Source: an uncultured Bacillota bacterium
GTDB lineage: Bacteria; Bacillota; Dehalobacteriia; UBA4068; UBA4997
Assembly: GCA_948907985.1 (NCBI GenBank)
Contig: CAQWMM010000003.1
Location: 7,173 to 71,172, forward strand
Reading direction: 5' to 3'
Length of the DNA stretch: 64,000 nt
Part shown: in pieces, positions 3,101 to 46,573 of the stretch
Numbering within the stretch: position 1 is the stretch's first letter
Layout of the letters: each line of letters begins with the position of its first letter
Notes under the pieces: model-generated
The model's input: only the letters and a program-made list of their open reading frames with translations
Database searches by the model: none
What the model was told of the DNA's origin: nothing
Position numbers and translations under genes: made by a program

Positions 3101-3135
3101 TATAAAAAAATATGAAAAATTTTAGGGGGGATTAT

Positions 3136-4628: not shown

Positions 4629-4631
4629 AAA

Positions 4632-4750
4632 AGTTCACTAGTACTCCATCTGCTTTGTCATTAGGCTGTTTGGCTTCGTCAACGTACTATTAGTACGCCT
4701 CCTCGCCGCACAGTCTAATTCCTCGCATTTGGGGCACTATTGAACTTTTT
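4632..4750 (+). other. Structured intergenic element between terL and portal. A long-range stem (agttcactagtac…ggcactattgaact) is followed by TTTTT. It encloses a 29 nt palindrome-containing motif.
   Basis: The outer complementary arms match at 11 of 13 positions. A U-run lies at 4746-4750. The internal perfect palindrome is CGTACTATTAGTACG. Confidence 0.35.
4676..4704 (+). repeat. 29 nt motif tcgtcaacgtactattagtacgcctcctc (7-1-7 palindrome plus a CCTCCTC tail), copy 1.
   Basis: Its reverse complement recurs at 29205-29233 with one mismatch. Confidence 0.6.
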
Positions 4751-4779
4751 AGTTTAGTAAAATATCCTTAGGAAAAAAA

Positions 4780-4819
4780 GATGGCATGGAATGTCCGATT
4801 GTGATGTGTTAGAATGGTA
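4780..4819 (+). promoter_or_regulatory. Copy B of the 40 bp repeat with an extended -10 (TGtTAGAAT), upstream of the portal gene.
   Basis: It matches 3060-3100. A strong RBS (GAGGAGGG) lies downstream. Confidence 0.45.
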
Positions 4820-4875
4820 TCATCAGGAAAGAATGAGAGCAACAGAAAAAGATTGAGGAGGGATGAAAAATTATA

Positions 4876-6366: not shown

Positions 6367-7316
6367 AACAGTTTGATTTGTTGATTGGCAACGGCGAAGA
6401 CTGGCTGAGGCCGCAGGTTTTAAGCGGCCTGCGCTTGCAGCGGGGGGCTAACGCGGCGGCGGTGTTGGATTTTGCGGTGCTTAAAAACGGTATGCTTAAC
6501 TTTTTGGAGGGCGCGCCGGTGCGGCTGTTGGTTGACGGGCAGGTGATTTTTGCCGGGCGGGTGTTTGCCAAAAAGCGCAGTCAGCCGGAAATTATTCAGG
6601 TTCGGGCTTATGACCAGCTGCGTTATTTGCAAAACCGGGACTGCTGCGTTATGCAGGATTTTTCGCCGGGGGATTTGCTGCGGCGGATTTGCAGCGAGAA
6701 TAATTTGCAGATTGGAACGGTGGCGGATTGTGGGGTGCGCCTGTCGGCGCATAGCTTTGACAACCGGCGCTATCTGGATATGCTGGGGGAGGTGTTGAAT
6801 GAGGTTTGGCAGGCCAAGGGCAGCCGCTATTTTGTTTATGACGAGGCCGGCAAAATCTGCCTGCGGAGCTGCTGGGATTTGCGGGTGAATATTCTGTTGG
6901 CGGAGAACTGCATTGGCGGCTATGAATATGCTACCTCGGTGGACGGACAAACCTTTAACCGGGTTAAGGTGATTTATGAGGATAAGCGCAAGGGCCTGCG
7001 CAAGGAGTTTGTGGCGGAGAACCGGGAGCGAATTGACGATTGGGGGCCATTGCAGCTGGTGAGCAAGAGCGCCGACGCTAGGCAGCAGACTTATAGCCGG
7101 GCCAGAGAACTTTTGCAGGCTTATCAGCGGCGGCAGGAAAGCCTGGTGGTGCGGGACGCGCCAGGGGATTGGCGGGTACGCGGCGGCGGCATGGTTGGCC
7201 TGCGTTTGAATTTGGGCGAGCAGCTGGTGGACTGTTGGGCGTTGGTGAAAAGAGCGGAGCACAGAATTGTGGCGGGAAATTGTTTGATGAATTTAAACCT
7301 GGAGTGTATATATTAA
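6363..7316 (+). CDS. XkdQ/YqbQ-family phage tail protein (late-control-D/hub-like).
   Basis: Recalled similarity to B. subtilis XkdQ: GAPVRLLVDGQVIFAGRVF…IQVRAYDQLRYLQN…ESLVVRDAPGD parallels GDGIKFYWKGKLLFLGAVY…LVAYDDIWYLANN…ESLSVTTIG. Confidence 0.6.
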   Translation: MKQFDLLIGNGEDWLRPQVLSGLRLQRGANAAAVLDFAVLKNGMLNFLEGAPVRLLVDGQVIFAGRVFAKKRSQPEIIQVRAYDQLRYLQNRDCCVMQDFSPGDLLRRICSENNLQIGTVADCGVRLSAHSFDNRRYLDMLGEVLNEVWQAKGSRYFVYDEAGKICLRSCWDLRVNILLAENCIGGYEYATSVDGQTFNRVKVIYEDKRKGLRKEFVAENRERIDDWGPLQLVSKSADARQQTYSRARELLQAYQRRQESLVVRDAPGDWRVRGGGMVGLRLNLGEQLVDCWALVKRAEHRIVAGNCLMNLNLECIY

Positions 7317-7359
7317 GCTGACATATTAAATATATATGAATTTTGGGGAGGGGTGAGAA

Positions 7360-7806
7360 ATGTATCATTATTTTATTGGCGATGTGGAGCTGCCGCTGGC
7401 GCCGGAAAAATACAGCCTGAAGATTTGCCAGAATAATCAGCTGGTGCAGCTGGCCGACGGCGGCGAAATGAACCTTTTGCGGCCGGCGGGGCTTAGGGAA
7501 ATCAGCTTTGAATTGCTGCTGCCCTATTTTGAGGATTCGCCGCTGCTGCGCAACGGGGTTAAGGTTTTTAAGCCAATTTATTATTTGAACCGTCTGGCGG
7601 AATGGGCAGCGGCGGGGGAGCCTAGACGGCTGATTATTTATCGCTCGCTGCCGAACGGCGAGGAAATTTTTAATACCAGTATACTGGTGAGTTTGGAGGA
7701 TTATCAGGTTTTGGAGGCGGCTGATTTGGGCTTTGACGTGCGGGTGGCTCTGCGGCTGCGCGAATATCAGGAAAAGGTTTGCCAGAAATATGTGGGCGGC
7801 TTATAG
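7360..7806 (+). CDS. Hypothetical phage protein (tail/baseplate module), 148 aa.
   Basis: It lies between the XkdQ-like gene and a DUF2577-like ORF, has coding-like codon usage, and follows an RBS-like GGGGAGGGGTGAG. Confidence 0.4.
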   Translation: MYHYFIGDVELPLAPEKYSLKICQNNQLVQLADGGEMNLLRPAGLREISFELLLPYFEDSPLLRNGVKVFKPIYYLNRLAEWAAAGEPRRLIIYRSLPNGEEIFNTSILVSLEDYQVLEAADLGFDVRVALRLREYQEKVCQKYVGGL

Positions 7807-7847
7807 GCGAATTTTGGCAGTTTGGCGGGAATTAAGGAGGTGAGCGT

Positions 7848-8192
7848 TTGCAGACGGCGATTTTGGCAGAAACGCTGGCGGGGCTGGCCCAACGGGCGGC
7901 GGACAGTCAGTTGGCGGTGAACTTTGCCTTTGGCCGGGTGGTGGGGGAAAGCCCTTTGCAGATTTTGGTGGAGCAGCGGCTTTTGGTTCCGGAGGAACAG
8001 CTGATTTTGACCGACCCGGTGATTGGCAGTGTGGAGCGGCGGCTGGACGACGAGCGTTATTTACATGATAAGATTTATACCGTTTATCATAATTTGACGC
8101 TTGACGATCGGGTTTTGCTGGCCTGCGTACAGGGCGGGCAGGCTTATGTGATCGTCAGCCGTTATTATGCTACGGAACTGGACGAGGCCTGA
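7848..8192 (+). CDS. Hypothetical phage protein (possibly XkdR/DUF2577-like), 114 aa.
   Basis: TTG start preceded by AGGAGG at 7 nt. Context is the tail-hub block. Confidence 0.35.
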   Translation: MQTAILAETLAGLAQRAADSQLAVNFAFGRVVGESPLQILVEQRLLVPEEQLILTDPVIGSVERRLDDERYLHDKIYTVYHNLTLDDRVLLACVQGGQAYVIVSRYYATELDEA

Positions 8193-8227
8193 AAAACAGG
8201 TTTTGATAATGAAAAGGGGGTGAAAAG

Positions 8228-9190
8228 ATGGAACTTTGGGAAGATGCACTGCGCGCAGGCCTGAATTGGCTGCGGCAGGGGCGCGTTTGGCAACAACGAG
8301 CGGTTGACCGGCAAAGTCTGGGCGGCGGGCGGCCGCTGGTGAGCGAGGGCTCGACGGTGGGGAGGCCGAGCGAACAGGAGTTGGCCCTGTTGTTGGGCGT
8401 GGTTGGCAGGCCGGAAAACCCCGGCAAAAAAATTCGGCAGGGGTTGAGTAATCTGAACCGGCCCGGAGGCGGCGGCAGGCCGCAGAAGCGGGCGGCCTTG
8501 CCCGCACTGCCGAACCTGCCTGCACCGCCGGACTTGGTTACGTTGCCAGGCTCGCCCGCGTTGTCAGGCTCGTTGGTTGCGGCGGCTGGGAAAAAAAATG
8601 TACGGGGGCGGCCGCCAGTTGATTTGGCCGTTCGGCTGCCGGCGTTTACAGCGCGGCCGAATACTGGCCAACCGCCGGAAACCGCCGCCGAAGCGGAAAC
8701 GGACGGACAGTCGCCAATTCTGGCAGATTGGGCGGTTGACGTGCGGGCGGGAATGGAAGTGCGAAATTCTCCGGCGCGGGAAATGGCCGGCGAGGCGCAA
8801 AGCGCTGCGGGGCTGGCGGCTATCTTGGCTGAAAGCGAGGAGGTGATTTCGCGGCAGAGCGGCGAGGCGGCGGTGGCTGGGCCTGCTGATATAATAGCGG
8901 AAGCGAGCGGGCCGCCGGATAAAATACCGGAGCTGAACAGCGGGGAGCGGGTGGCTGCAATACCGGTGGCGAACAGGCCGGAGCCGGCGGACGATAATCA
9001 AAGGCTGGCGGCGGCAATTAATCTGACCGAAAAGGCGGCGCGCGAAACCCAGTTAGCGGTGGAGAGCCGGGCCGGCGATAGCGATTTTTTGACGGCATCG
9101 GCTGTGGATTTGGACGGTTTGGCCGATTTGGTAGCCGAAAGGCTGTGCGATGATATTGAGGCGATATTGAACAGTTCATCCTTGGTGTGA
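8228..9190 (+). CDS. Pro/Ala/Gly-rich low-complexity phage protein (320 aa), with a structured N-terminus and an acidic C-terminus.
   Basis: Good RBS (GGGGGTGAAAAG-ATG). It sits where a tape-measure gene would be expected, next to the tail chaperone. There is no helical or tape-measure signature. Confidence 0.45.
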   Translation: MELWEDALRAGLNWLRQGRVWQQRAVDRQSLGGGRPLVSEGSTVGRPSEQELALLLGVVGRPENPGKKIRQGLSNLNRPGGGGRPQKRAALPALPNLPAPPDLVTLPGSPALSGSLVAAAGKKNVRGRPPVDLAVRLPAFTARPNTGQPPETAAEAETDGQSPILADWAVDVRAGMEVRNSPAREMAGEAQSAAGLAAILAESEEVISRQSGEAAVAGPADIIAEASGPPDKIPELNSGERVAAIPVANRPEPADDNQRLAAAINLTEKAARETQLAVESRAGDSDFLTASAVDLDGLADLVAERLCDDIEAILNSSSLV

Positions 9191-9204
9191 GGGGAGGTGA
9201 AATG

Positions 9205-9600
9205 ATGAGCCAGAGTTTGACGGCTTTTTTGCAGGCTAATGCCCGGCGGGAGAATGTGCGCGTGGCGGTATCCGACCGGTTTGTGGACGAGGCGGGCCGG
9301 GCGCAGGAATGGGAATTGCAGCCTTTAACCGCGGCGGATTGGCAGGAGCTTTTGCTGGCGGCGGGCGGCGCCGGGCAGCCGCATTATAACGACATCTTTT
9401 TGGCGCTTTTGGCAAAATCTGTGGTGTGGCCGGATTTGAACAGCGCCGAATTGCAGGACAGTTATGGAGTGTTGGGGGCGGAAAAGCTGCTGTTGGCGAT
9501 GCTCTCGCCGGGCGAATATCAGGTTTTGCAGAGCGCTTTTGAGCAGCTTAATTTGCAGAGCCAGGCGGCGGGCGCGCAGTTGGCGGCGGCAAAAAACTGA
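9205..9600 (+). CDS. XkdN-like phage tail assembly chaperone (G-like product).
   Basis: MSQSLTAFLQANA…VAVSDRFVDEAG…VVWPDLNSAELQDSYGVLGAEKLL…LSPGEY closely parallels B. subtilis XkdN (MSKLQAFLQQNA…VVVSERFKDEEG…YPDLTNAELQKSYGVMGADELV…LPGEF). Confidence 0.7.
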   Translation: MSQSLTAFLQANARRENVRVAVSDRFVDEAGRAQEWELQPLTAADWQELLLAAGGAGQPHYNDIFLALLAKSVVWPDLNSAELQDSYGVLGAEKLLLAMLSPGEYQVLQSAFEQLNLQSQAAGAQLAAAKN

Positions 9601-9755
9601 TTGAGGCCGGCGATTGGGAGGTGAGCGCGGCGTTGGCGGCAATGCTGCGCTGGGGCTGGCGGCCAACGGATTTTATCCATATGAGCGCTGCCGAGCGGGC
9701 CTTTGTAATTGCCGGCCTGCAAAAGGAGTTGGCGGTTGGGCAGCGGTGCGTTTGA
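9205..9755 (+). CDS. Predicted G-T-like frameshift fusion of the tail assembly chaperone. It shifts -1 at 9591-9597 and continues in frame 0 to the stop at 9753-9755.
   Basis: The extension reads LIEAGDWEVSAALAAMLRWGWRPTDFIHMSAAERAFVIAGLQKELAVGQRCV. It looks protein-like rather than frame junk. Confidence 0.45.
9591..9597 (+). other. Canonical -1 programmed ribosomal frameshift heptamer A_AAA_AAC at the end of the chaperone gene.
   Basis: The X_XXY_YYZ heptamer is in the zero frame, 1 codon before the stop. The -1 frame is open for 52 more codons, and GC-rich structure follows. Confidence 0.5.
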
Positions 9756-9778
9756 ATATGAAAGGAGGTGAGCGGTAT

Positions 9779-10048
9779 ATGCTGGAGGAATTGCGGGCCT
9801 TATTTGGCGAGGCGGTTAATGAGGAAAATTTGGCCGAGTTTGAACGCAAATTTGTTAGCCGGACAAGCTATGAGGAATTGCAGCGGCAGTTTAGCCCGGA
9901 ATGGTTGGGGCTGGCCCCGGCGGCGGGCTGCGATGTGGAAGATATTGGCGGCGCAGACGGCGGTTGGAGCCTGCGTTTGGCCCAGGCCGAGGGCGTGGCG
10001 GCGATTAAGCTTAAGCAGGAGGCGGCGGCCAGGGGGATTATCGTGTGA
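9779..10048 (+). CDS. Hypothetical phage protein, 89 aa.
   Basis: ATG with an AAAGGAGGTGAG RBS. It lies between the chaperone and the capsid gene. Confidence 0.4.
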   Translation: MLEELRALFGEAVNEENLAEFERKFVSRTSYEELQRQFSPEWLGLAPAAGCDVEDIGGADGGWSLRLAQAEGVAAIKLKQEAAARGIIV

Positions 10049-10153
10049 GCGGCGGAGTGAAATTGTTGGGGAAATTTATAAAATATCTTAAAGAACGTTT
10101 GTTAAAGGTTTATTTAATAAAAATTATACTTAAATAGAAAGGATTGATTAATA

Positions 10154-11146
10154 ATGACACAGGTAAGTAATATTGGTACGGTTTGGAATTTGCCTAATTA
10201 TGCCGGTGAACTGTTTTGCGCCGACGCGATGCAAACCCCGCTTTTGGCGATGATTGGCGGGCTTTCCGGCGGGAGAATGACCACTAATTTTGAATTCCCT
10301 ACGGCAGCGCTGTTTGATTATCCGGAGGCCGTTCAGCCGGCGATTTCGGAAGAGGCGGCGGCGGTGGCCCCGGAGGCGCAGATGGCGGTACGCGAGCAGC
10401 AAACCAACGTGGTGCAGATTCATCAGGAGGTTATCAATTTGACTTATGCCAAGCAAAGCAACTGCGGGCGTATGCAGGGATTGAATACTGCCGGTGAGGA
10501 GGGCAACCCGTTAGCTGACGAGAGGGCTTTTCAGGTTCAGCATAAGCTGATTAAAATTGCCCGAGATGTGGAACACAGCTTTATTAACGGCAAGTTTCAG
10601 CGGGCGGACAGCAGCAGCAAGGCTAATAAGACGCGCGGCTTGTTGGAACTTTGCAGCGGCGGCACGACTATTGACGCTAAGGGCGCGGCGTTGAGCAAGA
10701 CGCTTTTGCAGCAGGTTTTCCGTGCGATGGCCGATAATGGCGCGTACTTCAGTAATATGGTGATGTTTTTGCCGGCTTTTCAGAAACAGGCGCTTTCGGA
10801 ACTTTATTCCTCGCAGTTTGCGGGCACTGCTGTTTATACGCCCAGTCAACGCCAGGTGGGCGGTGTGAATATTACGGAACTGGAAACCGATTTTTGCCGT
10901 TTGGGCGTTTGTTGGGACCGTTTTATGCCGGCGGATAGCATTTTGATTGCCGATGTGGCACATTTGGCCCCGGTGTTCCAGGCTGTGCCGGGAAAGGGCG
11001 TGCTGTTTGAGGAGGAACTGGCCAAAACCGGCGCGGCGGATAAAATCCAGATTTATGGTCAAATTGGTTTGGCGCACGGCCCGGCCTTTTTGCATGCCTC
11101 GATTACCGGACTGGCGGCGGGAACGACCGCCGGCAGCGGTGAGTAA
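10154..11146 (+). CDS. Phage major capsid protein (candidate).
   Basis: A 330 aa protein at the capsid position of the head module. Its composition resembles XkdG-type capsid proteins. Confidence 0.5.
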   Translation: MTQVSNIGTVWNLPNYAGELFCADAMQTPLLAMIGGLSGGRMTTNFEFPTAALFDYPEAVQPAISEEAAAVAPEAQMAVREQQTNVVQIHQEVINLTYAKQSNCGRMQGLNTAGEEGNPLADERAFQVQHKLIKIARDVEHSFINGKFQRADSSSKANKTRGLLELCSGGTTIDAKGAALSKTLLQQVFRAMADNGAYFSNMVMFLPAFQKQALSELYSSQFAGTAVYTPSQRQVGGVNITELETDFCRLGVCWDRFMPADSILIADVAHLAPVFQAVPGKGVLFEEELAKTGAADKIQIYGQIGLAHGPAFLHASITGLAAGTTAGSGE

Positions 11147-11148
11147 TT

Positions 11149-11613
11149 ATGTTGGCGAAGTTGACTATTCAGCCGGAGGAACTGCGCGAACGGCTGTTGG
11201 CTTTGGGCTATGAGTTTGCGGAAACTGGCCCGGATTCGGAGCCGGACGAGGCTGATTTGTGTTTGGCGGGACGGCGGGCGGCGGCGTTCGCTGTGCGCTT
11301 TTGTAACCGGATTGACTGGGCCAGGTTGGAGTTGGCGGAGCAGGAGGGGCAGGCGTGCGAACTGCCCCCGGCCCTGCGCGAGGCCTTGCTGGACCTGGCG
11401 GCGGGCTATTTTTTGCAGGCCAAAATGGCCCTGGCCCCGGAAAGTTTGGCGGTGATGCCAACGCTGACCTCTTTGCGTTTGGGGGACGCCACCTGGGGTT
11501 TTGGCGGCGGTACGCAGAAAAGCGGCGTCGACTCTTTGAGCCGGGCGGAACTTTTGGCCGCCGGCCTGCTGCGGGAGGCCCGGGCGGCGCTGTGCGCCTG
11601 GCGTTCTCTTTGA
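11149..11613 (+). CDS. Phage head-tail connector/gp6-like protein (candidate).
   Basis: The N-terminus (LTIQPEELRERLLALGYEF…) is typical of head-tail connector proteins. It sits between the capsid and the sheath genes. Confidence 0.4.
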   Translation: MLAKLTIQPEELRERLLALGYEFAETGPDSEPDEADLCLAGRRAAAFAVRFCNRIDWARLELAEQEGQACELPPALREALLDLAAGYFLQAKMALAPESLAVMPTLTSLRLGDATWGFGGGTQKSGVDSLSRAELLAAGLLREARAALCAWRSL

Positions 11614-11655
11614 TTTGGCCGGTTGGCCGGAAATTGACAGCTTGGGGGTGATTGT

Positions 11656-12069
11656 TTGTATGCGCAGAAAATGACCGCGCTTTATGCCCGGGCGGGCCGG
11701 ATGATGCAGCAGTTTTTGGACGGTATTTGCACGGTCTATGCTTTGCAGCCATTGGCGCAGGACGGTGTTTTATGCGGCGGGTTTGCTGATTTTGCCGGTT
11801 GGCAGCCGGTGGAGGGGCAGGAAAGCCTGCCCTGCCATTTGGCCGTGCAGCAGAATGGGCCGGCGGCGGCGGACGAGGACGGCAGCCGGGTGGCAGCGCA
11901 CTGCCGCTTGTTTTTAAGCCGGGCGGAGCAGAGCGGCGCGCCGCCTGCCGGCAGCCGGATGCGGGTGGAGCAGCAGGGGCAGGTTTTTTGGCTGGCTTGC
12001 AGCGGGCTGGCGGCCAGTTATCCCACGCATTGGGAAATGGAGGTTAAATTGTTGGATGAGCGGGCCTGA
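11656..12069 (+). CDS. Phage head-tail adaptor/head-closure protein (candidate).
   Basis: Assigned by position. The C-terminal THWEMEVKLLDE motif fits that family. Confidence 0.35.
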   Translation: MYAQKMTALYARAGRMMQQFLDGICTVYALQPLAQDGVLCGGFADFAGWQPVEGQESLPCHLAVQQNGPAAADEDGSRVAAHCRLFLSRAEQSGAPPAGSRMRVEQQGQVFWLACSGLAASYPTHWEMEVKLLDERA

Positions 12070-12090
12070 GCGAAAGGAGGCGGAGAACTT

Positions 12091-12627
12091 TTGCAGGATT
12101 TTTTATGGGCGGTGGCGGACAGGCTGCGCCGGCTTTTCCCGGAGGGAGCGCCGGTTTATTTTGGCCGGCTTTTGCAGGGTGAAAGAACGCCCTGTTTTTA
12201 TTTGCCGCCGCCGGCGCTGCGCCGTCAGCTTTGGCCCTGCGGCCGGGTGCGCCGGGAAATTGAATTGGAACTGTGTTATTATCCCCGGCAGCGCCGATTT
12301 TCGGCGGAAACGGCGGCTAATTCGTCCGCGGCGCAAAATTTAAGCGGTTTGAGCGAACAGGAGCGCATCGGCGAGGGGTTGGTGCGCGGGATGGGCGAGT
12401 TGACGGGACGCCGGCGCGGTTATCGAGGCCGGGAACTTAGCTGGCAGGCTGGCAATGAATGTCTGCGCTTTAAGGCCAGGTATGTTTATTATACCACTTT
12501 GGAGCTGGAGGCGGCGGACGGCTGGAGCGAGCCGCCGGCAGGCGCGGATTTGATGGAGTTCTGGTTATTGGCGGACAGCGAAGATAATAACGACAATATT
12601 GTAAATGATGATCATACAGAAAAATAA
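12091..12627 (+). CDS. Phage tail-completion/HK97 gp10-like protein (candidate).
   Basis: Assigned by position (third small gene before the sheath). TTG start with a GGAGG RBS. Confidence 0.3.
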   Translation: MQDFLWAVADRLRRLFPEGAPVYFGRLLQGERTPCFYLPPPALRRQLWPCGRVRREIELELCYYPRQRRFSAETAANSSAAQNLSGLSEQERIGEGLVRGMGELTGRRRGYRGRELSWQAGNECLRFKARYVYYTTLELEAADGWSEPPAGADLMEFWLLADSEDNNDNIVNDDHTEK

Positions 12628-12650
12628 ATTTTATAATGGAGGGAAGAAGT

Positions 12651-13958
12651 ATGGCGTTTGGTGGCGGAAGTTTTGTAACGCAAAATAAAATTTTGCCCGG
12701 GGTTTATGTGAATGTTAATCAGCAGAGCCGGGCTGGTTCTAACGTGTCTGAGCGGGGCGTGGCTGCTTTAGGCCTGGAGCTGGACTGGGGGCCGGAGGGC
12801 GAGCCCTTTTTTGTGGAGGCCGGCGAGTTTAGGAGCAAGGCGCAAAAGCTGTTTGGTTATGCTTATGGTGATGAAAAGCTGAAAGGGCTGCGGGATTTGT
12901 TTCTGCACGCGGGGGGTTGTTATTTTTATCGTTTGAATGGCGGCGCTAAGGCGGGCTGCGCTTTGAGCACGGCCAAATACAGCGGCGAGCGGGGCAACGC
13001 GCTGACGGTGAAGGTGGAGGCTGGGCCGGAACCGGGCGGCGGTTTTGAGGTTATAACTTTTTTGGCCGGCCAGGAGATTGACCGCCAGCAGGTGAGCAGC
13101 GCCGCCGCTTTGCGGGATAATGATTTTGTTTGTTGGAAAAAAGACGCGGAACTGACGGCTGACAGTTATGTTCAGCTGACCGGAGGCAGCAGCAAGGCTA
13201 AGGCGGCCGCGGAGGATTATCAAACGATGCTTGAGGCGTTGACGGAATGTGATTTTAACGTTTTGGGCTGTTTGAGCACGGAGCAGGCCGTGAAAACTTT
13301 GCTGGCCAAGTATACCAGAGAACAGCGCGAGGATAACGGGCGCAAGTTCCAGACGGTGCTTTATGATTATGGGGCTAATTATGAGGGCGTGATTTCAGTG
13401 GGCTGCCCGGCGGCGGAAACTGATTGGCCGGCCAGCGCGTTGGTTTATTGGGTGTTGGGCGCGGAAGCCGGCTGCGCGGTGAACGCTACGCTGACCAATG
13501 CCGTTTACGACGGGGAGATTAAGGCGCAGGCGGTAAGCGGGCAGCGGAATTTGCAGCAGGCCCTGTTGGACGGGAAACTGGTTTTGCACCGTTTGAACGG
13601 CGAACTTCGGGTTTTGGAGGACGTGAACTCTCTGGTGGGCTGGCAGGAGAGCGGCCAGGAAGACCGGCGCTTTAATCAGACGATCAGAGTGCTGGACCAG
13701 ATTGTGCTGGATTTGGCCGGCCTGTTTTATCAGCGTTATTTGGGAATTGTGCCTAATGACAACGCCGGGCGCATTAGCCTGTGGAGCGATGTGGTGGCTT
13801 ACTTCCGCAAGCTGGAGGGGCTGCGCGCTATCGAGGGCTTTTCTACCGACGACGTGGCGGTGGAGCAGGGCGAAAATAAAAAAGCGGTGGTGGTTTCGGT
13901 CCGTCTGAACGTAACCAACGCGATGTCGCAGTTATACCTGACGGTTACTTTTAACTAA
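12651..13958 (+). CDS. Phage tail sheath protein (XkdK-like).
   Basis: A ~435 aa protein with a sheath-family N-terminus (MAFGGGSFVTQNKILPGVYVNVN). GGAGGG RBS. Confidence 0.85.
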   Translation: MAFGGGSFVTQNKILPGVYVNVNQQSRAGSNVSERGVAALGLELDWGPEGEPFFVEAGEFRSKAQKLFGYAYGDEKLKGLRDLFLHAGGCYFYRLNGGAKAGCALSTAKYSGERGNALTVKVEAGPEPGGGFEVITFLAGQEIDRQQVSSAAALRDNDFVCWKKDAELTADSYVQLTGGSSKAKAAAEDYQTMLEALTECDFNVLGCLSTEQAVKTLLAKYTREQREDNGRKFQTVLYDYGANYEGVISVGCPAAETDWPASALVYWVLGAEAGCAVNATLTNAVYDGEIKAQAVSGQRNLQQALLDGKLVLHRLNGELRVLEDVNSLVGWQESGQEDRRFNQTIRVLDQIVLDLAGLFYQRYLGIVPNDNAGRISLWSDVVAYFRKLEGLRAIEGFSTDDVAVEQGENKKAVVVSVRLNVTNAMSQLYLTVTFN

Positions 13959-13988
13959 AAATTAATAATATAGAAAGAGGGGAAAAAT

Positions 13989-14456
13989 ATGGCAACAACC
14001 ATGAACGCCTGGGACGCTTTAAGCGCCGGATTGGCGGAATGTTATGTTACAATCGACGGACGGCGTTATAAATTTATGCAGGCCATTAATCTGGAGGCCA
14101 GCATTGAAAAGAAAAAAATGCAGGTGCCGGTTTTGGGACGCGTTGGCCGGGGCAATAAAGGCGTTAGCTGGAGCGGTTCCGGCAAGGCGACCTTTCATTA
14201 TAACAGCTCGGTGTTTCGGGAACTGTTGTATCGCTTTAAGGAAAGCGGCGAGGATATGTATTTTGATATTCAGATTACTAACGAGGACCCGGTGAGCAGC
14301 GTTGGCCGGCAAACGGTGATTTTGAAAGACTGCAACCTGGACGGCGGCGTTTTGGCCAAGTTCAGCGCGGAGGATGAATATTTGGAGGAGGAACTGCGCT
14401 TTACCTTTGAAGACTTTGAGATCCCGGAGAAATTCAGTAATCTGGCCGGGATGTAG
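13989..14456 (+). CDS. Phage tail tube/core protein (XkdM-like).
   Basis: A 155 aa protein directly after the sheath gene, with tube-family composition. Confidence 0.75.
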   Translation: MATTMNAWDALSAGLAECYVTIDGRRYKFMQAINLEASIEKKKMQVPVLGRVGRGNKGVSWSGSGKATFHYNSSVFRELLYRFKESGEDMYFDIQITNEDPVSSVGRQTVILKDCNLDGGVLAKFSAEDEYLEEELRFTFEDFEIPEKFSNLAGM

Positions 14457-14474
14457 GCGGGGGAGGCCGAACTG

Positions 14475-14840
14475 ATGACGGAGGAGAGCAGAACCTATGC
14501 AATGAGCGAGCTTTCCGGCCAGGGCTGTGTGCTGCGGGGTATGACGGAGGGAGCGGCGGCGCTGCGCCAGACGGTGTTTATGCTTTTGCAGACTGAAGCC
14601 GGGCAGTGGCCGGTTTATCCTGACGGTTTTGGCGTGGAGCTGGCCGACCTGTTCGGCCAGCCCCTGGTTTATGTGATACCGGAGGTGGAAAGGCGGCTGC
14701 GGGAGGCGCTGCTGCGGGACGAGCGGATTTTGAACGTGGAAAATTTCAGCTTTAAGCAGCAGAGCAGCCGCCTGCTGGTTGAGTTCACGGTGAAAAGCGT
14801 TTACGGCGAAATGACGCTGGCCGCGGAAATTGCGCTTTAG
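14475..14840 (+). CDS. XkdS-like (DUF2634) baseplate protein.
   Basis: A 121 aa protein immediately before baseplate J. Confidence 0.5.
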   Translation: MTEESRTYAMSELSGQGCVLRGMTEGAAALRQTVFMLLQTEAGQWPVYPDGFGVELADLFGQPLVYVIPEVERRLREALLRDERILNVENFSFKQQSSRLLVEFTVKSVYGEMTLAAEIAL

Positions 14841-14865
14841 GCGGACAGGCGGGGAGGTGAAAGAA

Positions 14866-15936
14866 ATGTTTGAAAATATGACCTATGAAAAAATTATGAA
14901 CGATATGTTGGCGCAGGTGAATAACCCTGTGGATAAGCGCGAGGGTTCGCTGATTTGGGATGCGCTGGCCCCGGCGGCCTGGGAACTGGCCAGACTTTAT
15001 GCCGCTATGGACCAGGTTTTGTTGGAGGGGTTTGCCGATACGGCCTCGCGCCAGTATTTAATTCTGCGGGCCAGCGAACGGGGATTGACGCCGCGGCAGG
15101 CCAGCGCCGCCAGAGCCCTGGGCGAGATTGAACTGGCGGCGGGGGCTAAAGCGCCGCTGGGCGCGCGTTTTTGCTGCGACCGTTTTAACTGGCGTATTGT
15201 GGCTGATTTAGGCGATAAACTTTATGAACTGGAATGTGAGGAGCTGGGCAGCAAGCCCAACGCTTATATTGGCAATATGGTGCCGCTGGAATATATGAAC
15301 GGTTTGAATAAGGCGGAACTGCTCAGGATTCTGGTCCCTGGCGAGGACGTGGAGAGTACGGAAAACTTCCGGGCGCGCTATTTGAAAGATTTGGTGGAAC
15401 AGAGTTTTGGCGGCAATGCGGCAGATTATGTTAATAAGGCGGAAAGTATCGCCGGGGTGGGCGCGGCTAAGGTGCAGGCGGCCTGGAAGGGCGGCGGCAC
15501 TGTGAAACTGCTTTTGTTGAACGAAAAAATGGGTGTGCCGGACAATGCGTTGGTGCAGCGCGTGCAGATGACTTTTGATCCACCGCCGGGGCAGGGTGCC
15601 GGTTTGGGATTGGCCCCGATTGGCCATGTGGTTACGGCGGCGGCAGCCAGAGCCAGAAGCGTGGCGGTGAGTTTGAACGTTACGCTGCGCGAGGGCTGGC
15701 AGCTTGCCGATGTGCAGAAAGCGGCGGCGGGCTGTGTGGACAAATATTTTGCGGATTTGTGCGCCGGATGGGGTGCGGCGGAGCGGCTGATTGTGCGCGT
15801 CAGCCAGTTGGAGGCCCGGATTTTGCAGCTTGACGGCATTTTGGATGTGGGCAGTTTGCAGCTGAACGGCCAGAGCGCAAACCTGACTTTGGCGGCGGAT
15901 GAAATCCCGGTGCGGGGGCAGGTGAGCGTTCATTAA
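14866..15936 (+). CDS. Baseplate J-like protein (XkdT-like).
   Basis: Baseplate_J-like N-terminal region (MTYEKIMNDMLAQVNNPVDKREGSLIWDALAPAAWELARLYAAMDQ). Confidence 0.8.
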   Translation: MFENMTYEKIMNDMLAQVNNPVDKREGSLIWDALAPAAWELARLYAAMDQVLLEGFADTASRQYLILRASERGLTPRQASAARALGEIELAAGAKAPLGARFCCDRFNWRIVADLGDKLYELECEELGSKPNAYIGNMVPLEYMNGLNKAELLRILVPGEDVESTENFRARYLKDLVEQSFGGNAADYVNKAESIAGVGAAKVQAAWKGGGTVKLLLLNEKMGVPDNALVQRVQMTFDPPPGQGAGLGLAPIGHVVTAAAARARSVAVSLNVTLREGWQLADVQKAAAGCVDKYFADLCAGWGAAERLIVRVSQLEARILQLDGILDVGSLQLNGQSANLTLAADEIPVRGQVSVH

Positions 15937-15985
15937 TAATACGGATTATAAAACGGCGGCGAGCTTTGAGGCGCAGGCGGGGCAG

Positions 15986-16516
15986 CTGGCGGAATATCTG
16001 CCGCCGGTGGCTTTGCAGATTCGGAATGTTGAGCAGGTTTTGGACGTGGAACAACCTTTTTTTGCCACGGCCTGGCGACGGCTGGCTGGGGTTTTGTCGG
16101 AGGAGATGATTATGCAGGCCGGCAGCTATGGCATTGGCCGCTGGGAGGAGCTTTTGCAAATTGCCGGGCGGGACAGCCTGAGCCTGGAAGAGCGGCGCAG
16201 ATTGGTTCTGCTGCGCCTGAACGAACAGCTGCCTTTTACGATCAGCCGCCTGCGGGAACTGTTGGCTGCCAATGTGCCGGCGGGCGAATATGTTTTGACG
16301 CTGGACCATGCTGCTTATACGCTGCACGTCTTTTTGGAACTTAGCTCTAAGGGCTGTGCCCCGGCTCTGCGGGAGCTGCTGCGGCGGGTGCTGCCCGCCA
16401 ATTTGCAGTTTGATTTGCAGCTTTTGTATAACACCTATGGCCGCCTGGGCCAATATAAACACGCGGAACTGGCGGGGCTGCGCCATTGGGAAATTCGTGA
16501 GGAGGTGCTTGATTGA
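15986..16516 (+). CDS. XkdU/YmfQ-like (DUF2313) tail protein. The start codon is non-canonical or uncertain.
   Basis: The conserved N-terminal YLP motif (LAEYLPPV) lies upstream of the first GTG (16007). There is no ATG, GTG or TTG between the upstream stop (15923-15925) and the motif. A CTG at 15986 after GGCGGGG would give M-AEYLPP. Confidence 0.5.
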   Translation: MAEYLPPVALQIRNVEQVLDVEQPFFATAWRRLAGVLSEEMIMQAGSYGIGRWEELLQIAGRDSLSLEERRRLVLLRLNEQLPFTISRLRELLAANVPAGEYVLTLDHAAYTLHVFLELSSKGCAPALRELLRRVLPANLQFDLQLLYNTYGRLGQYKHAELAGLRHWEIREEVLD

Positions 16517-17574
16517 TGGCTACTTATACCATAAATTATAATTTGAAAAAACCTGCGCCGTCGGAATATTATAATATTCAGGATTTCAATAATAACGCCG
16601 ATACCATCGACGCTAAGCTTAAGCTGGGCGATGAGGCCAAAACTCTGGCTGACGCGTTGAATACTAAAATGACGGCGGCTAATAAAAATATTGAAAATCT
16701 GCTGAAAAGAAGTTTGATTGCCGTTGAAATTTGGGCTCCGCCTAATACGCAGGTTACGCTGGAGCAGGGGCAGCTTTCGTTTTCCGGCACGGTGAGCAGC
16801 AGCATGACGCTGCTGGCTCCGGTATCGGCTCTGGGGCTTTGGGAGATGACCTATATCTATGCCGGCAAAACCTATTTTCGGGACGTCTGGGTTGATCGGA
16901 TTGGCTATACGCGGGCGGTGGCCGCACCGTCGCTGGCGGCTTCGCCCTGGGCTTTTATCGCTAAGGTTTCGGAGGCCGGGCTGGCCCGAGAGGCCTATGT
17001 TCTGGGCAGCACCAAGAGCGTTGCCAGCAGTTTGGGCACTTATGATATGCAGATTATCGGCTTTGATCATGACTGTTTGACCACGCCGCGGCCGGGGCGG
17101 GAAAGGGCCGGCCTGACCTTTCAAATGCGCTCGTCTACGCCGGCGAATTATTCTATTGATCCGGATATTTATTTTGCGGACAGCTGGCTGGAATGTAATA
17201 TGCGGACCGAGCAGCTGCCGGCTATTCTGGAATCTATGCCGGCCGATTTGCAGAGTGTGATTAAACTGGTGAACAAGTATACCGCCAGCGTTAATTCTAT
17301 GGAGGGACTAAGCAGCAGCGAAGAGTTGTTTTTGTTCTCTGATTATGAACTTTGCGGACACAGCGGGCTGATTACGCCGTATTCTTACAGCCGGCAGTAT
17401 GAATATTACTGCTGCGGCCATACGCCGCAAAAGAATGTTTCTTACTGGCTGCGCAATAATACGTCCGGCCCAAATGGTCTGGAAAATTTCTTATTGCTGG
17501 ACAGTGCAAATAAATCTCCGAAGTTTAGCCGCTGCGAAAATAAGCAAGGGCTTTGTTTGGGATTTTGTGTGTGA
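16516..17574 (+). CDS. Phage tail fibre/receptor-binding protein.
   Basis: The N-terminus (ATYTINYNLKKPAPSEYYNIQDFNNNADTIDAKL) is the conserved tail-fibre N-terminal motif. The C-terminus is Cys-rich. Confidence 0.55.
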   Translation: MATYTINYNLKKPAPSEYYNIQDFNNNADTIDAKLKLGDEAKTLADALNTKMTAANKNIENLLKRSLIAVEIWAPPNTQVTLEQGQLSFSGTVSSSMTLLAPVSALGLWEMTYIYAGKTYFRDVWVDRIGYTRAVAAPSLAASPWAFIAKVSEAGLAREAYVLGSTKSVASSLGTYDMQIIGFDHDCLTTPRPGRERAGLTFQMRSSTPANYSIDPDIYFADSWLECNMRTEQLPAILESMPADLQSVIKLVNKYTASVNSMEGLSSSEELFLFSDYELCGHSGLITPYSYSRQYEYYCCGHTPQKNVSYWLRNNTSGPNGLENFLLLDSANKSPKFSRCENKQGLCLGFCV

Positions 17575-17630
17575 TTTTTGATTTGCCTTGCGTAAAAAAA
17601 CTGAATACAATATGAAGGAGGGGTTGCGTT

Positions 17631-17852
17631 TTGACAATTTTGCAAAGACTGGCCAGACTGTTGGATGTTAAAAGTCTGGTTACGCTGGCGCTGGTTTTGG
17701 TTCTGTGTATCATGACCTTGAGCGGCCGGGAGGTGAGCGAACTTTTTAGCAGTGCGGTAATGCTGGTGTTGGGTTTCTTTTTTGGCAAGAATGTACCGGC
17801 GGCTGGCGGCCAGCAGGAAAATAACGGCAGGGAGAACCAGAAAGGAGTGTAG
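17631..17852 (+). CDS. Holin (candidate), 73 aa with two transmembrane segments.
   Basis: A small hydrophobic protein immediately upstream of the lysin gene. Confidence 0.5.
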   Translation: MTILQRLARLLDVKSLVTLALVLVLCIMTLSGREVSELFSSAVMLVLGFFFGKNVPAAGGQQENNGRENQKGV

Positions 17853-17858
17853 GGTGGT

Positions 17859-18491
17859 ATGCGTTATCCTTTTGATAAGTATCGTCTGGGTACGGGCTAT
17901 GGCGCTAAAGGCGGCCTGTGGCGGGCCGGCTGGCACAGCGGGCAGGATTTTATCTCGGTGAGCTTTGGCGGCGACGGTTTGGTATATCCGCTTTATGAGG
18001 GGCGGGTGCTGCGGGTTAGCCGGGGCGGCAGCTACGGCAACTGTGTGCAGGTGCGCCATGCCGACGGTTATCTTACGCTTTATGCGCATTTGCGTACAGT
18101 TTATGTGCGCGCCGGGCAAAAAGTGGGCGAGAATACGGTTTTGGGCATTGAGGGGGCGACCGGCAACGTTACCGGCCGGCATTTGCATTTGGAGGTACAT
18201 AAAGGGGAATATCATTATCCCTCGCTGGTTAATCCGCTGCAATTTATCGCCCAAAGAATGATGAACGGCGGCTTGACAGAAAATTCAGAAAAGGAGGCGG
18301 ACGGCGAATTGGAAAAACTGCTGAAAATTCGCCTGAACGGCACGGAGAAAGTTGTACAGGCGATTGAAAAAAGCGGCCATAATTATGTGCGCCTACAGGA
18401 TCTGCGCGATGGATTGATTGCGGTGGAATATGACGAGGCGGCGCATATTCCGGTGGTGCAGGTGCATAATAAAAAATATATTAATATGTAA
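17859..18491 (+). CDS. M23-family peptidase endolysin.
   Basis: LytM-type motifs HSGQD…GNCVQVRH…TLYAHL…GATGNVTGRHLHLEV. The C-terminal ~70 aa domain is of unknown type. Confidence 0.75.
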   Translation: MRYPFDKYRLGTGYGAKGGLWRAGWHSGQDFISVSFGGDGLVYPLYEGRVLRVSRGGSYGNCVQVRHADGYLTLYAHLRTVYVRAGQKVGENTVLGIEGATGNVTGRHLHLEVHKGEYHYPSLVNPLQFIAQRMMNGGLTENSEKEADGELEKLLKIRLNGTEKVVQAIEKSGHNYVRLQDLRDGLIAVEYDEAAHIPVVQVHNKKYINM

Positions 18492-44527: not shown

Positions 44528-44947
44528 TCAGGAGGCTCGTTTGGCGTTATCTGGGGGAAACAGACGCGCCAGGGTTTGCTTTTGCCGGCGGTTTAGCTGG
44601 CGCACGCTGTAGCCCAAACGCTCGGCGGTTTTTTCCCAGGTCAGACCCTCGATATAATAAAGCCGCAGCAGGCGGCGTTCTTCTGGCTGCAAATTGGCAA
44701 TAAATTCTTCAATTTCCTGCCGCAGGGCGATTAGCTGGTTCAGGCGCTGGGCCAAAAGCTGGCTTAGCTGCCAAAGCCGGGCGGCGGTATCGGATACGGC
44801 GTCTTTCACCAGCCCCTTGCGCCGGCTGCCGTTGCCGAGCGGCCAGCTGGCGGGCAGGCTGCCCTGCGCCAAAGCCTCTTTTTCGTCCTCCAGTTCTCTG
44901 ATTTCATAGCATAACTGCCGGTACTGCATAAGCGATTGTTTGTCCAT
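44528..44947 (-). CDS. Sigma-70 region-4-like small transcriptional regulator (ArpU/RinA/DUF1492-like phage late activator type), 139 aa.
   Basis: A C-terminal ERRLLRLYYIEGLTWEKTAERLGYSVRQLNRRQKQTLARL motif, which is a region-4 HTH. The N-terminus is a coiled coil. A consensus promoter (TTGACA, 17 bp spacer, TATATT) lies at 45018-45046 on the minus strand. Confidence 0.5.
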   Translation of the reverse strand: MDKQSLMQYRQLCYEIRELEDEKEALAQGSLPASWPLGNGSRRKGLVKDAVSDTAARLWQLSQLLAQRLNQLIALRQEIEEFIANLQPEERRLLRLYYIEGLTWEKTAERLGYSVRQLNRRQKQTLARLFPPDNAKRAS

Positions 44948-45079
44948 ATCATACTACCCTCCGTAATGTTAAGTATTTCAAACGCTTGGCGTTTGTTGAG
45001 TTGCTTTTTACGTTACAAATATAACACTAAATGAGTTGCTTGTCAAGTACTTTTTTCTGCAAAAAGTTTGCAAAAACTG

Positions 45080-45108
45080 TTGCATTTTACGGAACAATGT
45101 GGTATAAT
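45080..45108 (+). promoter_or_regulatory. Promoter of the S24 repressor gene (TTGCAT, 17 bp spacer, TGgTATAAT), flanked by palindromes.
   Basis: An extended -10. The palindromes are TGCAAAaagTTTGCA (45058-45072) and CAAACGCttgGCGTTTG (44979-44995), both in the divergent intergenic region. Confidence 0.5.
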
Positions 45109-45129
45109 GCCGGGCAAGAGGTGATTTAT

Positions 45130-45744
45130 ATGACGACTGGCAGTAAGCTTAAGGCCAGGCGCAAACAGCTTGGCCTGACATTGGAGGAGCTGGCCGGCCA
45201 CATTGGCGTAACCAGACAAACGTTGAGCCGCTATGAAAACGGGGTGATCGCCAACATCCCTATGGAGCGGATTGAGCGTTTGGCCGCGGCCATGCAAACC
45301 ACGCCGGGCGAACTTTTGGGTTGGCAGGACAATGATTTTTTAGAGTATCAGCCCAACCGGCGGGTGCCGATTTTGGGGCGGATTTCCGCCGGGCTGCCGC
45401 TTTATGCGGAAGAGCAGGTGGAGGGCGCAATTTGGGTGGAGGTCGGCGGCGCCGGCGAATACTTTGCCCTGCGCGTTAAGGGCGACAGCATGAACGCCGC
45501 CCACATTTTTGAGGGCAATCTGCTGATTGTGCGCAAGCAGGATATTGTGGAAAACGGCGAGATCGCCGTGGTGATGATTGACGACAACGACGCCACCGTT
45601 AAACGTTTTCATCGCCAGGGCCACATTGTAACCCTGCTGCCGCAGTCTACCAATCCGGAGCACCTGCCCCAGATTTATGATACGCGCAAAACAGCGGTGC
45701 GGGTGATTGGCAAGGTGATTAAAAACGAAATTATTTTTGAGTAA
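45130..45744 (+). CDS. XRE-HTH plus S24 peptidase autocleavable repressor (LexA/CI/HdiR-like).
   Basis: An HTH_XRE (LKARRKQLGLTLEELAGHIGVTRQTLSRYENG), an Ala-Gly site (ISAGLP), a Ser nucleophile (GDSM) and a Lys (TVKRF). It is not the canonical winged-HTH LexA. Confidence 0.7.
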   Translation: MTTGSKLKARRKQLGLTLEELAGHIGVTRQTLSRYENGVIANIPMERIERLAAAMQTTPGELLGWQDNDFLEYQPNRRVPILGRISAGLPLYAEEQVEGAIWVEVGGAGEYFALRVKGDSMNAAHIFEGNLLIVRKQDIVENGEIAVVMIDDNDATVKRFHRQGHIVTLLPQSTNPEHLPQIYDTRKTAVRVIGKVIKNEIIFE

Positions 45745-46573
45745 ATTATGGCAAAGGTATGGTCTGGCCGTTGGCCTGTGGCTTTTGTTTGAAGGCGTGG
45801 CTGTCGGCCTTTGGCTGGCGCTGGATAACAGTTTTTATTTGTTTAATTTTTCCTATATCGGCACGGCGCTGGCGTTTGGCGTGGCGCTGTTCAGTCAAAA
45901 GCGGCCATATGCGCGCAATGTGGTGCAGTTTGCCATTGGCTTGTATATGCTGGTTTATATTGGCCTGCTTGGCCGGGAGAATATGCAGATTGAGGGCTTT
46001 TGGTATTATTTGTTTTTGGGTGTGTTTGAAGCCGCCACCATTCATTATGCCGTTGCCAAAATCTTTGGGCCGCTGGTTTTTGGCCGGGGCTGGTGCGGCT
46101 ATGCCTGCTGGACGGCGATGGTCTTAGATTTGCTGCCTTTTAAAACGCCGCAGTTGCCGCGTAAGAGCTGGGGCTGGGTGCGGTATCTGGTTTTTGTTGC
46201 CTCGCTGCTTTTTGTAGCTACGCTTTTTTGGTTGCGGGTTGACAATCTGGTGGAGATTATGTGGTGGAGCTTTATTATCGGCAATCTGCTTTATTATCTG
46301 GTGGGGATCGCGCTGGCCTATCTTTGCCGGGATAACCGGGCTTTTTGCAAATACATCTGTCCGATTACTGTATTTTTGAAACCGATGAGTTATTTTGCGC
46401 TGCTGCGGGTTAAACTGGATGAAGAAAAGTGCGTTGCCTGCGGCAAATGCCGGCGGCTTTGCCCGATGAACGTTGATGTGCCGAACAACTCCCGGCGCAG
46501 GCTAAACGCCACCGAATGTATTTTGTGTATGCGCTGTGTCGATAGCTGCCCGCAAAAAGCTTTAAAATTATAA
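45737..46573 (+). CDS. Polytopic membrane protein with a C-terminal 2x[4Fe-4S] ferredoxin domain (NapH/MauN-like).
   Basis: CVACGKCRRLCP and CILCMRCVDSCP motifs after multiple transmembrane segments. Confidence 0.6.
   Translation: MSKLWQRYGLAVGLWLLFEGVAVGLWLALDNSFYLFNFSYIGTALAFGVALFSQKRPYARNVVQFAIGLYMLVYIGLLGRENMQIEGFWYYLFLGVFEAATIHYAVAKIFGPLVFGRGWCGYACWTAMVLDLLPFKTPQLPRKSWGWVRYLVFVASLLFVATLFWLRVDNLVEIMWWSFIIGNLLYYLVGIALAYLCRDNRAFCKYICPITVFLKPMSYFALLRVKLDEEKCVACGKCRRLCPMNVDVPNNSRRRLNATECILCMRCVDSCPQKALKL

Follow-up and report, generated by a model that had tools for sequence, protein, structure and literature searches.

A divergent S24 repressor and Ltr-type activator pair as a probable remote switch for a PBSX-like element in an uncultured Bacillota bacterium

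The 64,000-nucleotide stretch analysed here, referred to as the window throughout, comes from an uncultured Bacillota bacterium (contig CAQWMM010000003.1) and carries two sets of phage-type genes that lie far apart. The first is a pair of divergent genes at 44528-45744, one encoding an S24 repressor and the other a 139-aa regulator with a sigma region-4 domain. The second is a PBSX-like element of head and contractile-tail genes at 3136-18491. Both open reading frames (ORFs) of the pair and their divergent orientation were confirmed. Judging from the sequence, we consider it moderately probable that the pair serves as a minimal induction switch of two genes, domesticated from a temperate phage, and that it controls the defective element ~26-41 kb away. 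The features of the pair and of its shared control region are as follows.

44528-44947, minus strand: activator gene, 139-aa late-gene activator of the Ltr (late transcriptional regulator) kind, Sigma70_r4 class (Pfam, phrog_36, AlphaFold2 model, ratio of nonsynonymous to synonymous substitution rates, dN/dS)
44979-44995, minus strand: palindrome CAAACGCttgGCGTTTG in the 5' untranslated region (UTR) of the activator mRNA, its stem conserved in L007 and L008 (91% relatives) only
45000-45016, no strand assigned: proposed operator O3, over the predicted P_sig transcription start; fixed offset +30 in 5 of 7 orthologous regions
45018-45046, minus strand: P_sig, predicted activator promoter, TTGACA-17-TATATT with an upstream TG (consensus scan, 11 of 12 matches)
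45035-45051, no strand assigned: proposed operator O2, centred on the P_sig -35; fixed offset -5 from TTGAC in 6 of 7 orthologous regions
45079-45095, no strand assigned: proposed operator O1, over the P_rep -35 (autoregulation); offsets -47 to -57 in 5 of 7 orthologous regions, one-mismatch match in the window
45080-45108, plus strand: P_rep, predicted repressor promoter, TTGCAT-17-TGGTATAAT, extended -10 and weak -35 (read from the sequence)
45130-45744, plus strand: repressor gene, 204-aa XRE-type helix-turn-helix (HTH) and S24 self-cleaving repressor with Ala87-Gly88, Ser120 and Lys158 (Pfam, LexA alignment, phrog_4, dN/dS)

The sole curated domain of the activator is sigma-70 region 4, matched in Pfam over residues 76-129 by both PF04545 (Sigma70_r4, 33.4 bits, cutoff 24.1) and PF08281 (Sigma70_r4_2, 31.9 bits, cutoff 25.7). 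No Pfam match to region 2 (Sigma70_r2) was found, in agreement with the preliminary description of the protein as a region-4-only regulator. The protein also matches phrog_36 ('transcriptional regulator', E 2.9e-22) over residues 3-126, essentially its whole length. In the AlphaFold2 model (mean predicted local distance difference test score, pLDDT, 79) a helix at residues 3-27, a disordered loop at 28-43 and a long helix at 44-84 precede a three-helix HTH at 88-129, so that the N-terminal half is modelled as a helical hairpin. The C-terminal ~50 residues of the model superpose on region 4 of SigF, SigD and SigE with 2.1-2.4 Å. A fold search of the PDB with the whole model gave no significant global match (best E 0.044), the similarity being confined to the C-terminal domain. 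The presence of a sigma region-4 HTH without region 2 indicates an activator rather than a true sigma factor.

The preliminary description had placed this protein among the regulators of phage late genes, naming ArpU, RinA and Xpf. The general assignment holds, in that the protein matches phrog_36 and by its sequence is of the Ltr kind, Sigma70_r4 class, distantly homologous to the Ltr late activators. A specific assignment to RinA is not supported, the score against the RinA model TIGR01636 being 21.0 bits (cutoff 31.9). The score against DUF1492 (PF07374, LtrB class) is 14.4 bits (gathering cutoff 21.5), and no ArpU model appears among the Pfam matches (E ≤ 0.1) or among the 25 of 32 NCBIfam matches listed. 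The preliminary description had also raised the possibility of a housekeeping extracytoplasmic function (ECF) sigma factor with an anti-sigma partner elsewhere. We rejected this because the protein lacks region 2, matches a phage regulator family over its whole length, and scores 40.9 against the general sigma-70/ECF model TIGR02937 (cutoff 42.9), aligning with model positions 99-161 only. It should be mentioned that the gene does not have the position expected for the Ltr family, as it lies between a thioesterase gene and the S24 repressor gene, 41 kb from terS. Its distant homologues do have this position, directly before terS where the early module of the phage ends.

The repressor consists of an N-terminal HTH_3 (XRE) domain and a Peptidase_S24 domain (PF00717, 91.2 bits), and its best family match is phrog_4, the phage CI-type repressors (E 5.7e-40). 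The Ala-Gly cleavage site and the Ser/Lys dyad reported in the preliminary description are present and in register with E. coli LexA: Ala87-Gly88 (45388-45393) aligns with A84-G85, Ser120 (45487-45489) with S119, and Lys158 (45601-45603) with K156. Against the LexA equivalog model TIGR00498 the protein scores 101.2 bits, below the cutoff of 110.95, through its C-terminal part only. It has an XRE DNA-binding domain in place of the LexA winged-helix domain, and by these measures it is not LexA proper. The start of the gene had to be corrected. The ORF had been taken from 45031, its maximal extent, which would read through the repressor promoter; the true start is almost certainly the ATG at 45130, since a ribosome-binding site (RBS) is present there and this start agrees with all orthologues and with the public gene call.

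No phage genes flank the pair, as had been noted before. On one side lie genes for a double hot-dog thioesterase, pgi and an amylase/4-alpha-glucanotransferase, and on the other genes for a NapH-like ferredoxin, MatE, AraC and ksgA, all of housekeeping type. A protein search found few orthologues of the activator, 22 in number, and in every one with sufficient flanking sequence the gene stands back to back with the same repressor. In three metagenome-assembled genomes (MAGs) labelled Peptococcaceae or Bacillota (loci L019, L020 and L021) the pair has the same synteny as in the window, in the order glgCDA, amylase, pgi, thioesterase, pair, MatE, AraC, ksgA, band-7, pspA. In a goat-caecum MAG (L022; 55% and 70% identity) it lies between fba, a VanW gene and purA, and phage genes are absent there as well. 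MAGs that carry the pair include GCA_949935695.1, to which the window was assigned, and JAETNY01, CANSKT01, JAETTP01 and JAFQHN01. Both ORFs are intact in all orthologues, with dN/dS of 0.08-0.17 for the activator and 0.14-0.20 for the repressor; synonymous sites are close to saturated. The two genes form a conserved module under purifying selection. Among 32 viral loci with activator homologues, none has an S24 repressor next to the homologue, and the lack of this divergent pairing in viruses agrees with a rewired circuit kept by the host.

Between the NapH-like membrane ferredoxin gene (45737-46573) and the stop codon of the repressor there is an 8-nt overlap, suggestive of co-transcription. 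L019 and L020 lack the ferredoxin gene at the equivalent position and L068 has it split into two ORFs, and therefore it stands outside the conserved module. Many of the Logan contigs L007-L017, from different samples, stop inside the repressor gene or 40-90 nt past it. These contig ends suggest strain-level variation or a repeat just beyond the repressor, in line with the ferredoxin gene being variably present.

For the control region, the intergenic sequences of seven orthologous loci (55-91% activator identity) were aligned. P_sig is the most conserved intergenic block across all orthologues. The -10 of P_rep reads TGnTATAAT, and its reverse-complement block ATGCAACA...ATTATA is likewise conserved in the orthologues. 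Both promoters had been called strong; this holds for P_sig, with 11 of 12 consensus matches, whereas P_rep combines its extended -10 with a weak -35. A 17-bp inverted repeat, GTTRC-N7-GYAAC, is kept at three positions, at the P_sig -35, the P_sig start site and the P_rep -35. Shuffled regions are expected to contain 0.23 matches per region, as against sites at fixed offsets in the seven orthologous regions. L013, L020 and L022 have a perfect O2 site, as against 2 mismatches in the window; the O3 site is perfect in L016 and L021 and has one mismatch in the window. These three sites are likely the operators of the repressor, and their placement would give two-site repression of the activator gene and single-site autoregulation.

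The palindromes pointed out previously in the intergenic region do exist, at 45058-45072 and 44979-44995, but they are not conserved as operators, for which GTTRC-N7-GYAAC is the better candidate. The first, TGCAAAaagTTTGCA, is conserved in no orthologue and was rejected. The second, CAAACGCttgGCGTTTG (CAAACGC..GCGTTTG), was rejected as well, as it survives in the 91% relatives only, within the activator 5' UTR, and is missing from L013, L019, L016, L021 and L022; it could be a small RNA hairpin. In one of the 91% relatives (L007:~620-740, Logan SRR15970553) the intergenic region of the pair contains a ~110-nt insertion. It is bounded by duplicated CATTATACCA containing the repressor -10 box, and looks like a small mobile insertion or duplication.

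The predicted target of the pair lies at the other end of the window and comprises the following features.

3062-3095, plus strand: late promoter P_L1 before terS, TGGCA-N5-TGTCC-N13-TAAAAT, TG-extended -10, predicted activator target
3136-18491, plus strand: domesticated PBSX-like head-and-contractile-tail element, predicted regulon of the switch (PHROGs, Pfam)
4782-4815, plus strand: late promoter P_L2 before the portal gene, TGGCA-N5-TGTCC-N13-TAGAAT, TG-extended -10, predicted activator target
17631-17852: holin-like ORF, 73 aa, two predicted membrane helices, followed directly by the M23 peptidase gene (17859-18491)

The element begins with terS (75 aa), terL, an SPP1-type portal, XkdQ/YqbQ-like, DUF2577 and XkdN-like chaperone genes and an SU10-type capsid gene. 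It continues with tail terminator, sheath, tube, sheath initiator, baseplate J, Mu gp48-like and fibre genes, and ends in the holin-like ORF and the M23 peptidase gene. The ORF at 17631-17852 is probably the holin of a holin-lysin cassette that closes the element. Host genes abut both ends, with spore-coat genes at one and lspA, rluD and mgsA at the other. The gene order is shared by five other loci (portal identity 61-90%), and in four of these five orthologous elements housekeeping genes lie directly against the 5' (terS) end. Assemblies that carry the element include GCA_054291485.1 and bins of ERZ27297566 and ERZ28614940. No integrase, repressor, replication or activator gene was found in the examined stretches of the five orthologous elements. 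In the window, no regulator lies within or beside the element (3.1-18.5 kb), so the earlier statement that this late operon lacks a regulator of its own stands and extends to its orthologues. Because host genes adjoin it, its gene order recurs, and genes for phage integration, replication and regulation are absent, we conclude that this is a defective PBSX-like element, maintained by vertical inheritance and lacking its own regulator.

Some other properties of the element are noted. The gene in the terS position (3136-3363) encodes 75 aa without a Pfam match; L028, L063 and L065 have Terminase_2 proteins of 145-159 aa. The short TerS may have lost its DNA-recognition part. The genes at 6363-10048 (XkdQ/YqbQ-like, a 148-aa protein, DUF2577, a 320-aa unknown and the XkdN-like chaperone) are tail and baseplate genes placed between portal and capsid, an unusual order which is nevertheless conserved in all related elements. 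There is no long tape-measure ORF in the element, the 320-aa protein at 8228-9190 being the only candidate.

The two late promoters lie within a 51-nt repeat (3060-3110 and 4780-4830) that is 84% identical, with the first 22 nt identical; no repeat pair of this kind occurred in 100 shuffles. Both have two 5-mers one helical turn apart where a good -35 would be. The preliminary description had proposed a search for a region-4-type recognition element in the '40 bp repeats', and the search brought out TGGCA-N5-TGTCC-N13-TAnAAT. This layout of phased repeats and a -10 has only 2 matches in the window, the terS and portal promoters. In related elements it precedes terS in L027, L028, L029, L063, L065 and L066, and portal-proximal copies occur in L028, L029, L030, L065 and L066. 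More generally, the orthologous elements (61-90% portal identity) have TGTCN-N5-TGTCC-N13/14-TAnnAT before each transcription unit.

The terL-portal spacer of the window (4629-4875, 250 nt), which holds the second promoter copy, also contains inverted repeats such as GTACTATTAGTAC. This spacer is common to L029 and L030 but not to L027, which has a 22-nt gap, so the promoter duplication is recent in the sublineage of the window; L028, L065 and L066 have portal-proximal promoter copies of their own. In L063 and L028 long G/T- and G/A-rich tandem repeats (L063:2660-2770 and 9730-9990, L028:8470-8556), with units GAGTAGT, GGATAGTT and CAGATAAG, fill the leaders between the late promoters and the starts of terS, terL and portal. 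The window does not have them.

To relate the activator to these promoters, its homologues were surveyed in 37 phage-type loci (767 kb; activator homologues 25-46% identical). A degenerate X5-N5-X5-N13-(-10) pattern lies within ~40 nt of the 3' end of the activator homologue, on the same strand, in 21 of the 37 loci, and it has 28 matches in total in the 767 kb. Most of these phage copies read TGTCC-N5-TGTCC; others use TGTTC, TGTCT, TGGCA, TTAGCAC, GTGAAC or GATAG in the same phasing. In the cultured Acetoanaerobium phage ANDSL2_ph1, ATGATACAC occurs twice at 10-bp spacing, followed by a -10 box and the HNH and terS genes. Several of the homologue-bearing phages have a TerL 50% identical to that of the window 0.7-1.1 kb downstream. 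No clear repeat and -10 layout was found in the intergenic region of phiMMP02.

The pair stands alone among housekeeping genes and the predicted repeats occur only at the two promoters of the element; the pair is therefore probably its remote on-switch. In the resting state we expect the repressor, on the basis of phylogenetic footprinting, to occupy the three GTTRC-N7-GYAAC sites. Bound over the P_sig -35 and start and over the P_rep -35, it would hold the activator gene off and regulate its own expression. After DNA damage, activated RecA would lead the repressor to cleave itself at Ala87-Gly88 by means of Ser120 and Lys158, the residues for which are in place. The near-consensus P_sig could then fire, and the 139-aa Ltr-type activator would be made. 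From the observed promoter architecture and the established behaviour of its family, the activator is predicted to bind TGGCA and TGTCC, 10 bp apart, at ~-38 and ~-28. The phased 5-mers would substitute for a usable -35 at the two TG-extended -10 promoters, where the activator would recruit or stabilise the housekeeping RNA polymerase. The packaging, head, tail, holin and M23 lysin genes would thereby be switched on, and a fraction of the damaged cells may make particles and lyse. A PBSX-style switch acting in trans was what the preliminary description had hypothesised. Its predictions at the level of sequence turned out favourably, as the late layout occurs only at the two element promoters and is kept in orthologous elements, and the trans-acting, SOS-responsive model that leads from the pair to the element is well supported by computation.

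Several observations weigh against this model. Co-occurrence of the pair and the element is documented for this genome only; elsewhere they were found separately and never in one stretch, where the stretches around the matched genes reach 10 kb on each side. The sample accessions of the activator and portal homologues differ, and hence are uninformative on co-occurrence. No locus in which the pair adjoins the element was found among 8 loci of the genome collection, 32 viral loci and 41 metagenome loci (best 40% identity). The GTTRC-N7-GYAAC motif is not enriched window-wide (6 matches, 6.45 expected), and therefore the support for the operators comes down to positional conservation and local clustering. 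S24 repressors can also be inactivated by routes other than RecA. On the side of the activator, a comparison of recognition-helix residues with repeat sequences across the homologues gave no clean code, and the recognition helix of the window protein, YSVRQLNRRQK, is unlike those of the phage homologues that sit beside TGTCC repeats; in L022 the helix reads YSQRHLSRKLK. Because the helices differ, we infer the TGGCA/TGTCC specificity from the behaviour of the family and not from conserved contact residues. Finally, TGTCC-type late promoters are common among gut Firmicute phages, so an Ltr protein encoded by another prophage elsewhere in the genome could drive the element, in addition to the window activator or in its place. 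As for the element being repressed directly, no repressor operator was found within one mismatch at the late promoters.

Of the alternatives one fares best, although we regard it as unlikely: the late promoters are served by a different Ltr-type activator, for example that of a resident or incoming helper phage, as RinA and LtrC serve the packaging genes of Staphylococcus aureus pathogenicity islands (SaPI), and the pair controls another target beyond the window, or itself alone. With TGTCC-N5-TGTCC promoters so widespread, cross-activation is plausible; the differing recognition helices speak for it too, as does the fact that only 64 kb of the genome were in view. However, many lineages have kept the element with no regulator inside it, a pattern that favours an activator resident in the host and passed on vertically. 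In this lineage the pair, too, is conserved and evolves under purifying selection. The protein search gave no other sequence-detectable homologue with the NCBI source label, which is the label of the genome's own protein. Moreover, the window offers the pair no other promoter of the late type as an alternative target.

A second alternative concerns the identity of the repressor and is compatible with the switch model. The S24 protein, of the XRE-S24 (HdiR-like) type, would stand in for LexA as the general SOS regulator of the cell and govern a broad regulon, with the activator as one SOS-induced gene among others. The chromosomal, syntenic location of the gene, the purifying selection on it and its LexA-like C-terminal domain (TIGR00498, 101 bits) are consistent with such a role. 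We nevertheless find it improbable, given the score below the LexA equivalog cutoff, the lack of the winged-helix domain and a best family match to the phage CI-type repressors. The operator motif is not above chance upstream of other genes in the 64 kb, and the repressor travels with the activator even where the context has changed (L022). The remaining proposal, that the pair is an inert leftover lysogeny module of a decayed prophage, is suggested by its isolation and its phage-type protein families but has very little probability, since intact ORFs in all orthologues and dN/dS of 0.08-0.20 near synonymous saturation exclude a decaying remnant, and promoters and operators are conserved with the pair kept in two genomic contexts.

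If the switch model is taken one step further, the element may be a particle system maintained by its host, a Firmicute gene transfer agent (GTA) or a PBSX-type killer particle, in a Peptococcaceae-related group of uncultured gut Bacillota, on its way to becoming a dispersed regulon under an unlinked two-gene SOS switch that has long been inherited vertically. We offer this as a tentative possibility. It rests on the observations that structural genes can be separated by host genes, as in L063, and that each piece has a promoter of the activator-dependent type. In L063 (ENA ERZ27297566) ~5 kb of host genes (an M23/G5 protein, bipA and EamA) split terS from terL, and each fragment has its own promoter. 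The late promoters of this locus, TGTCA-N5-TGTCC-N13/14-(-10), lie at 2616-2650, 8204-8237 and 14383-14417, the third copy preceding a tail-chaperone gene further inside the element. It appears that the L063 element is fragmenting into a regulon, like GTAs before it. If so, this would be a particle system dispersing in the way that the alphaproteobacterial GTAs have, and the 75-aa TerS would fit packaging without sequence specificity.

Domesticated phage particles such as PBSX, pyocins and GTAs matter for competition between bacteria and for gene exchange. To our knowledge, only a few model organisms have shown how control over such particles passes from the phage to its host. If the model is correct, an uncultured gut Firmicute lineage has a very compact solution to this control, in which the structural cluster carries only the repeats of the activator. 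The promoter signature, two 5-mers 10 bp apart, N13 and an extended -10, is searchable; it would connect activators of the Ltr type with the promoters they act on, and could help to find their regulons in metagenomes.

We have compared the proposed circuit to several known systems. PBSX of Bacillus subtilis is a defective, SOS-inducible element for a head and contractile tail, controlled by the Xre repressor and the sigma-like positive control factor Xpf. Its xre and xpf genes lie inside the element beside the late operon, and Xre is not known to have an S24 domain. The window element resembles it, as far as genes alone tell, as a Firmicute element with tail genes of the Xkd type (XkdN, XkdQ, XkdR, XkdS, XkdT) and no integration or replication genes, and in both a small sigma-like late activator is placed downstream of a repressor, in the window by prediction. 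In the window, by contrast, the regulators are detached, the repressor is predicted to cleave itself and the gene order of the element is rearranged.

For the activator, the closest precedent is the Ltr superfamily, which comprises LtrA (Sigma70_r4), RinA, ArpU, LtrB and LtrC (PMC3753634, Quiles-Puchalt et al. 2013). For members of this superfamily, binding to direct repeats immediately upstream of terS has been demonstrated; activator-dependent terS transcription requires these repeats, which lie just distal to the ltr gene, and they suffice for it. The Ltr proteins themselves are both required and sufficient for late transcription, and CI-type repressors control their expression (PMC3753634). 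The window system shares the small protein with a C-terminal sigma region-4 HTH; it also has direct repeats just upstream of the terS promoter, here predicted to be bound by the activator, and a repressor of the CI type that is predicted to be SOS-sensitive. It differs in that the gene lies outside a phage and ~41 kb away from the presumed target. The gene is arranged back to back with the S24 repressor, with no intervening early or replication module and with two predicted target promoters. LlgA of the Listeria phage phi10403S is also an Ltr-family activator, whose expression alone switches on the late and lysis genes; unlike the window gene, it belongs to an intact prophage and has the canonical place ahead of terS (PMC7397523).

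Pyocins and a GTA offer two further comparisons. In the PrtR/PrtN/P-box control of R- and F-type pyocins in Pseudomonas aeruginosa (PMC8609362), the circuit logic is the same: a RecA-cleavable S24 repressor acts on one activator gene, as we propose here, and the activator acts on repeated boxes at domesticated phage-tail promoters, with unlinked loci possible and lysis after induction. PrtN is not a sigma region-4 protein, the Pseudomonas regulators lie at the edge of the pyocin cluster, and pyocins have no heads or terminase and a Gram-negative host (PMC8609362). GafA, the direct activator of the Rhodobacter capsulatus GTA, has tentative sigma-factor-like DNA-binding regions and likewise activates a domesticated phage-like particle cluster, with several dispersed loci under one regulator (PMC6363796, PMC9638019). 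It is larger, has a DnaA-like domain, works via the omega subunit of RNA polymerase and is under the control of CtrA and quorum sensing, not of an S24 repressor; no sequence relationship to the window activator is detectable. The gafA gene lies away from the GTA cluster, and the unlinked activator of the window recalls it in this respect. Set against these systems, the circuit logic and the Ltr family are known, and what would be new here is a self-cleaving repressor wired directly to a region-4 type activator, with both unlinked from their target.

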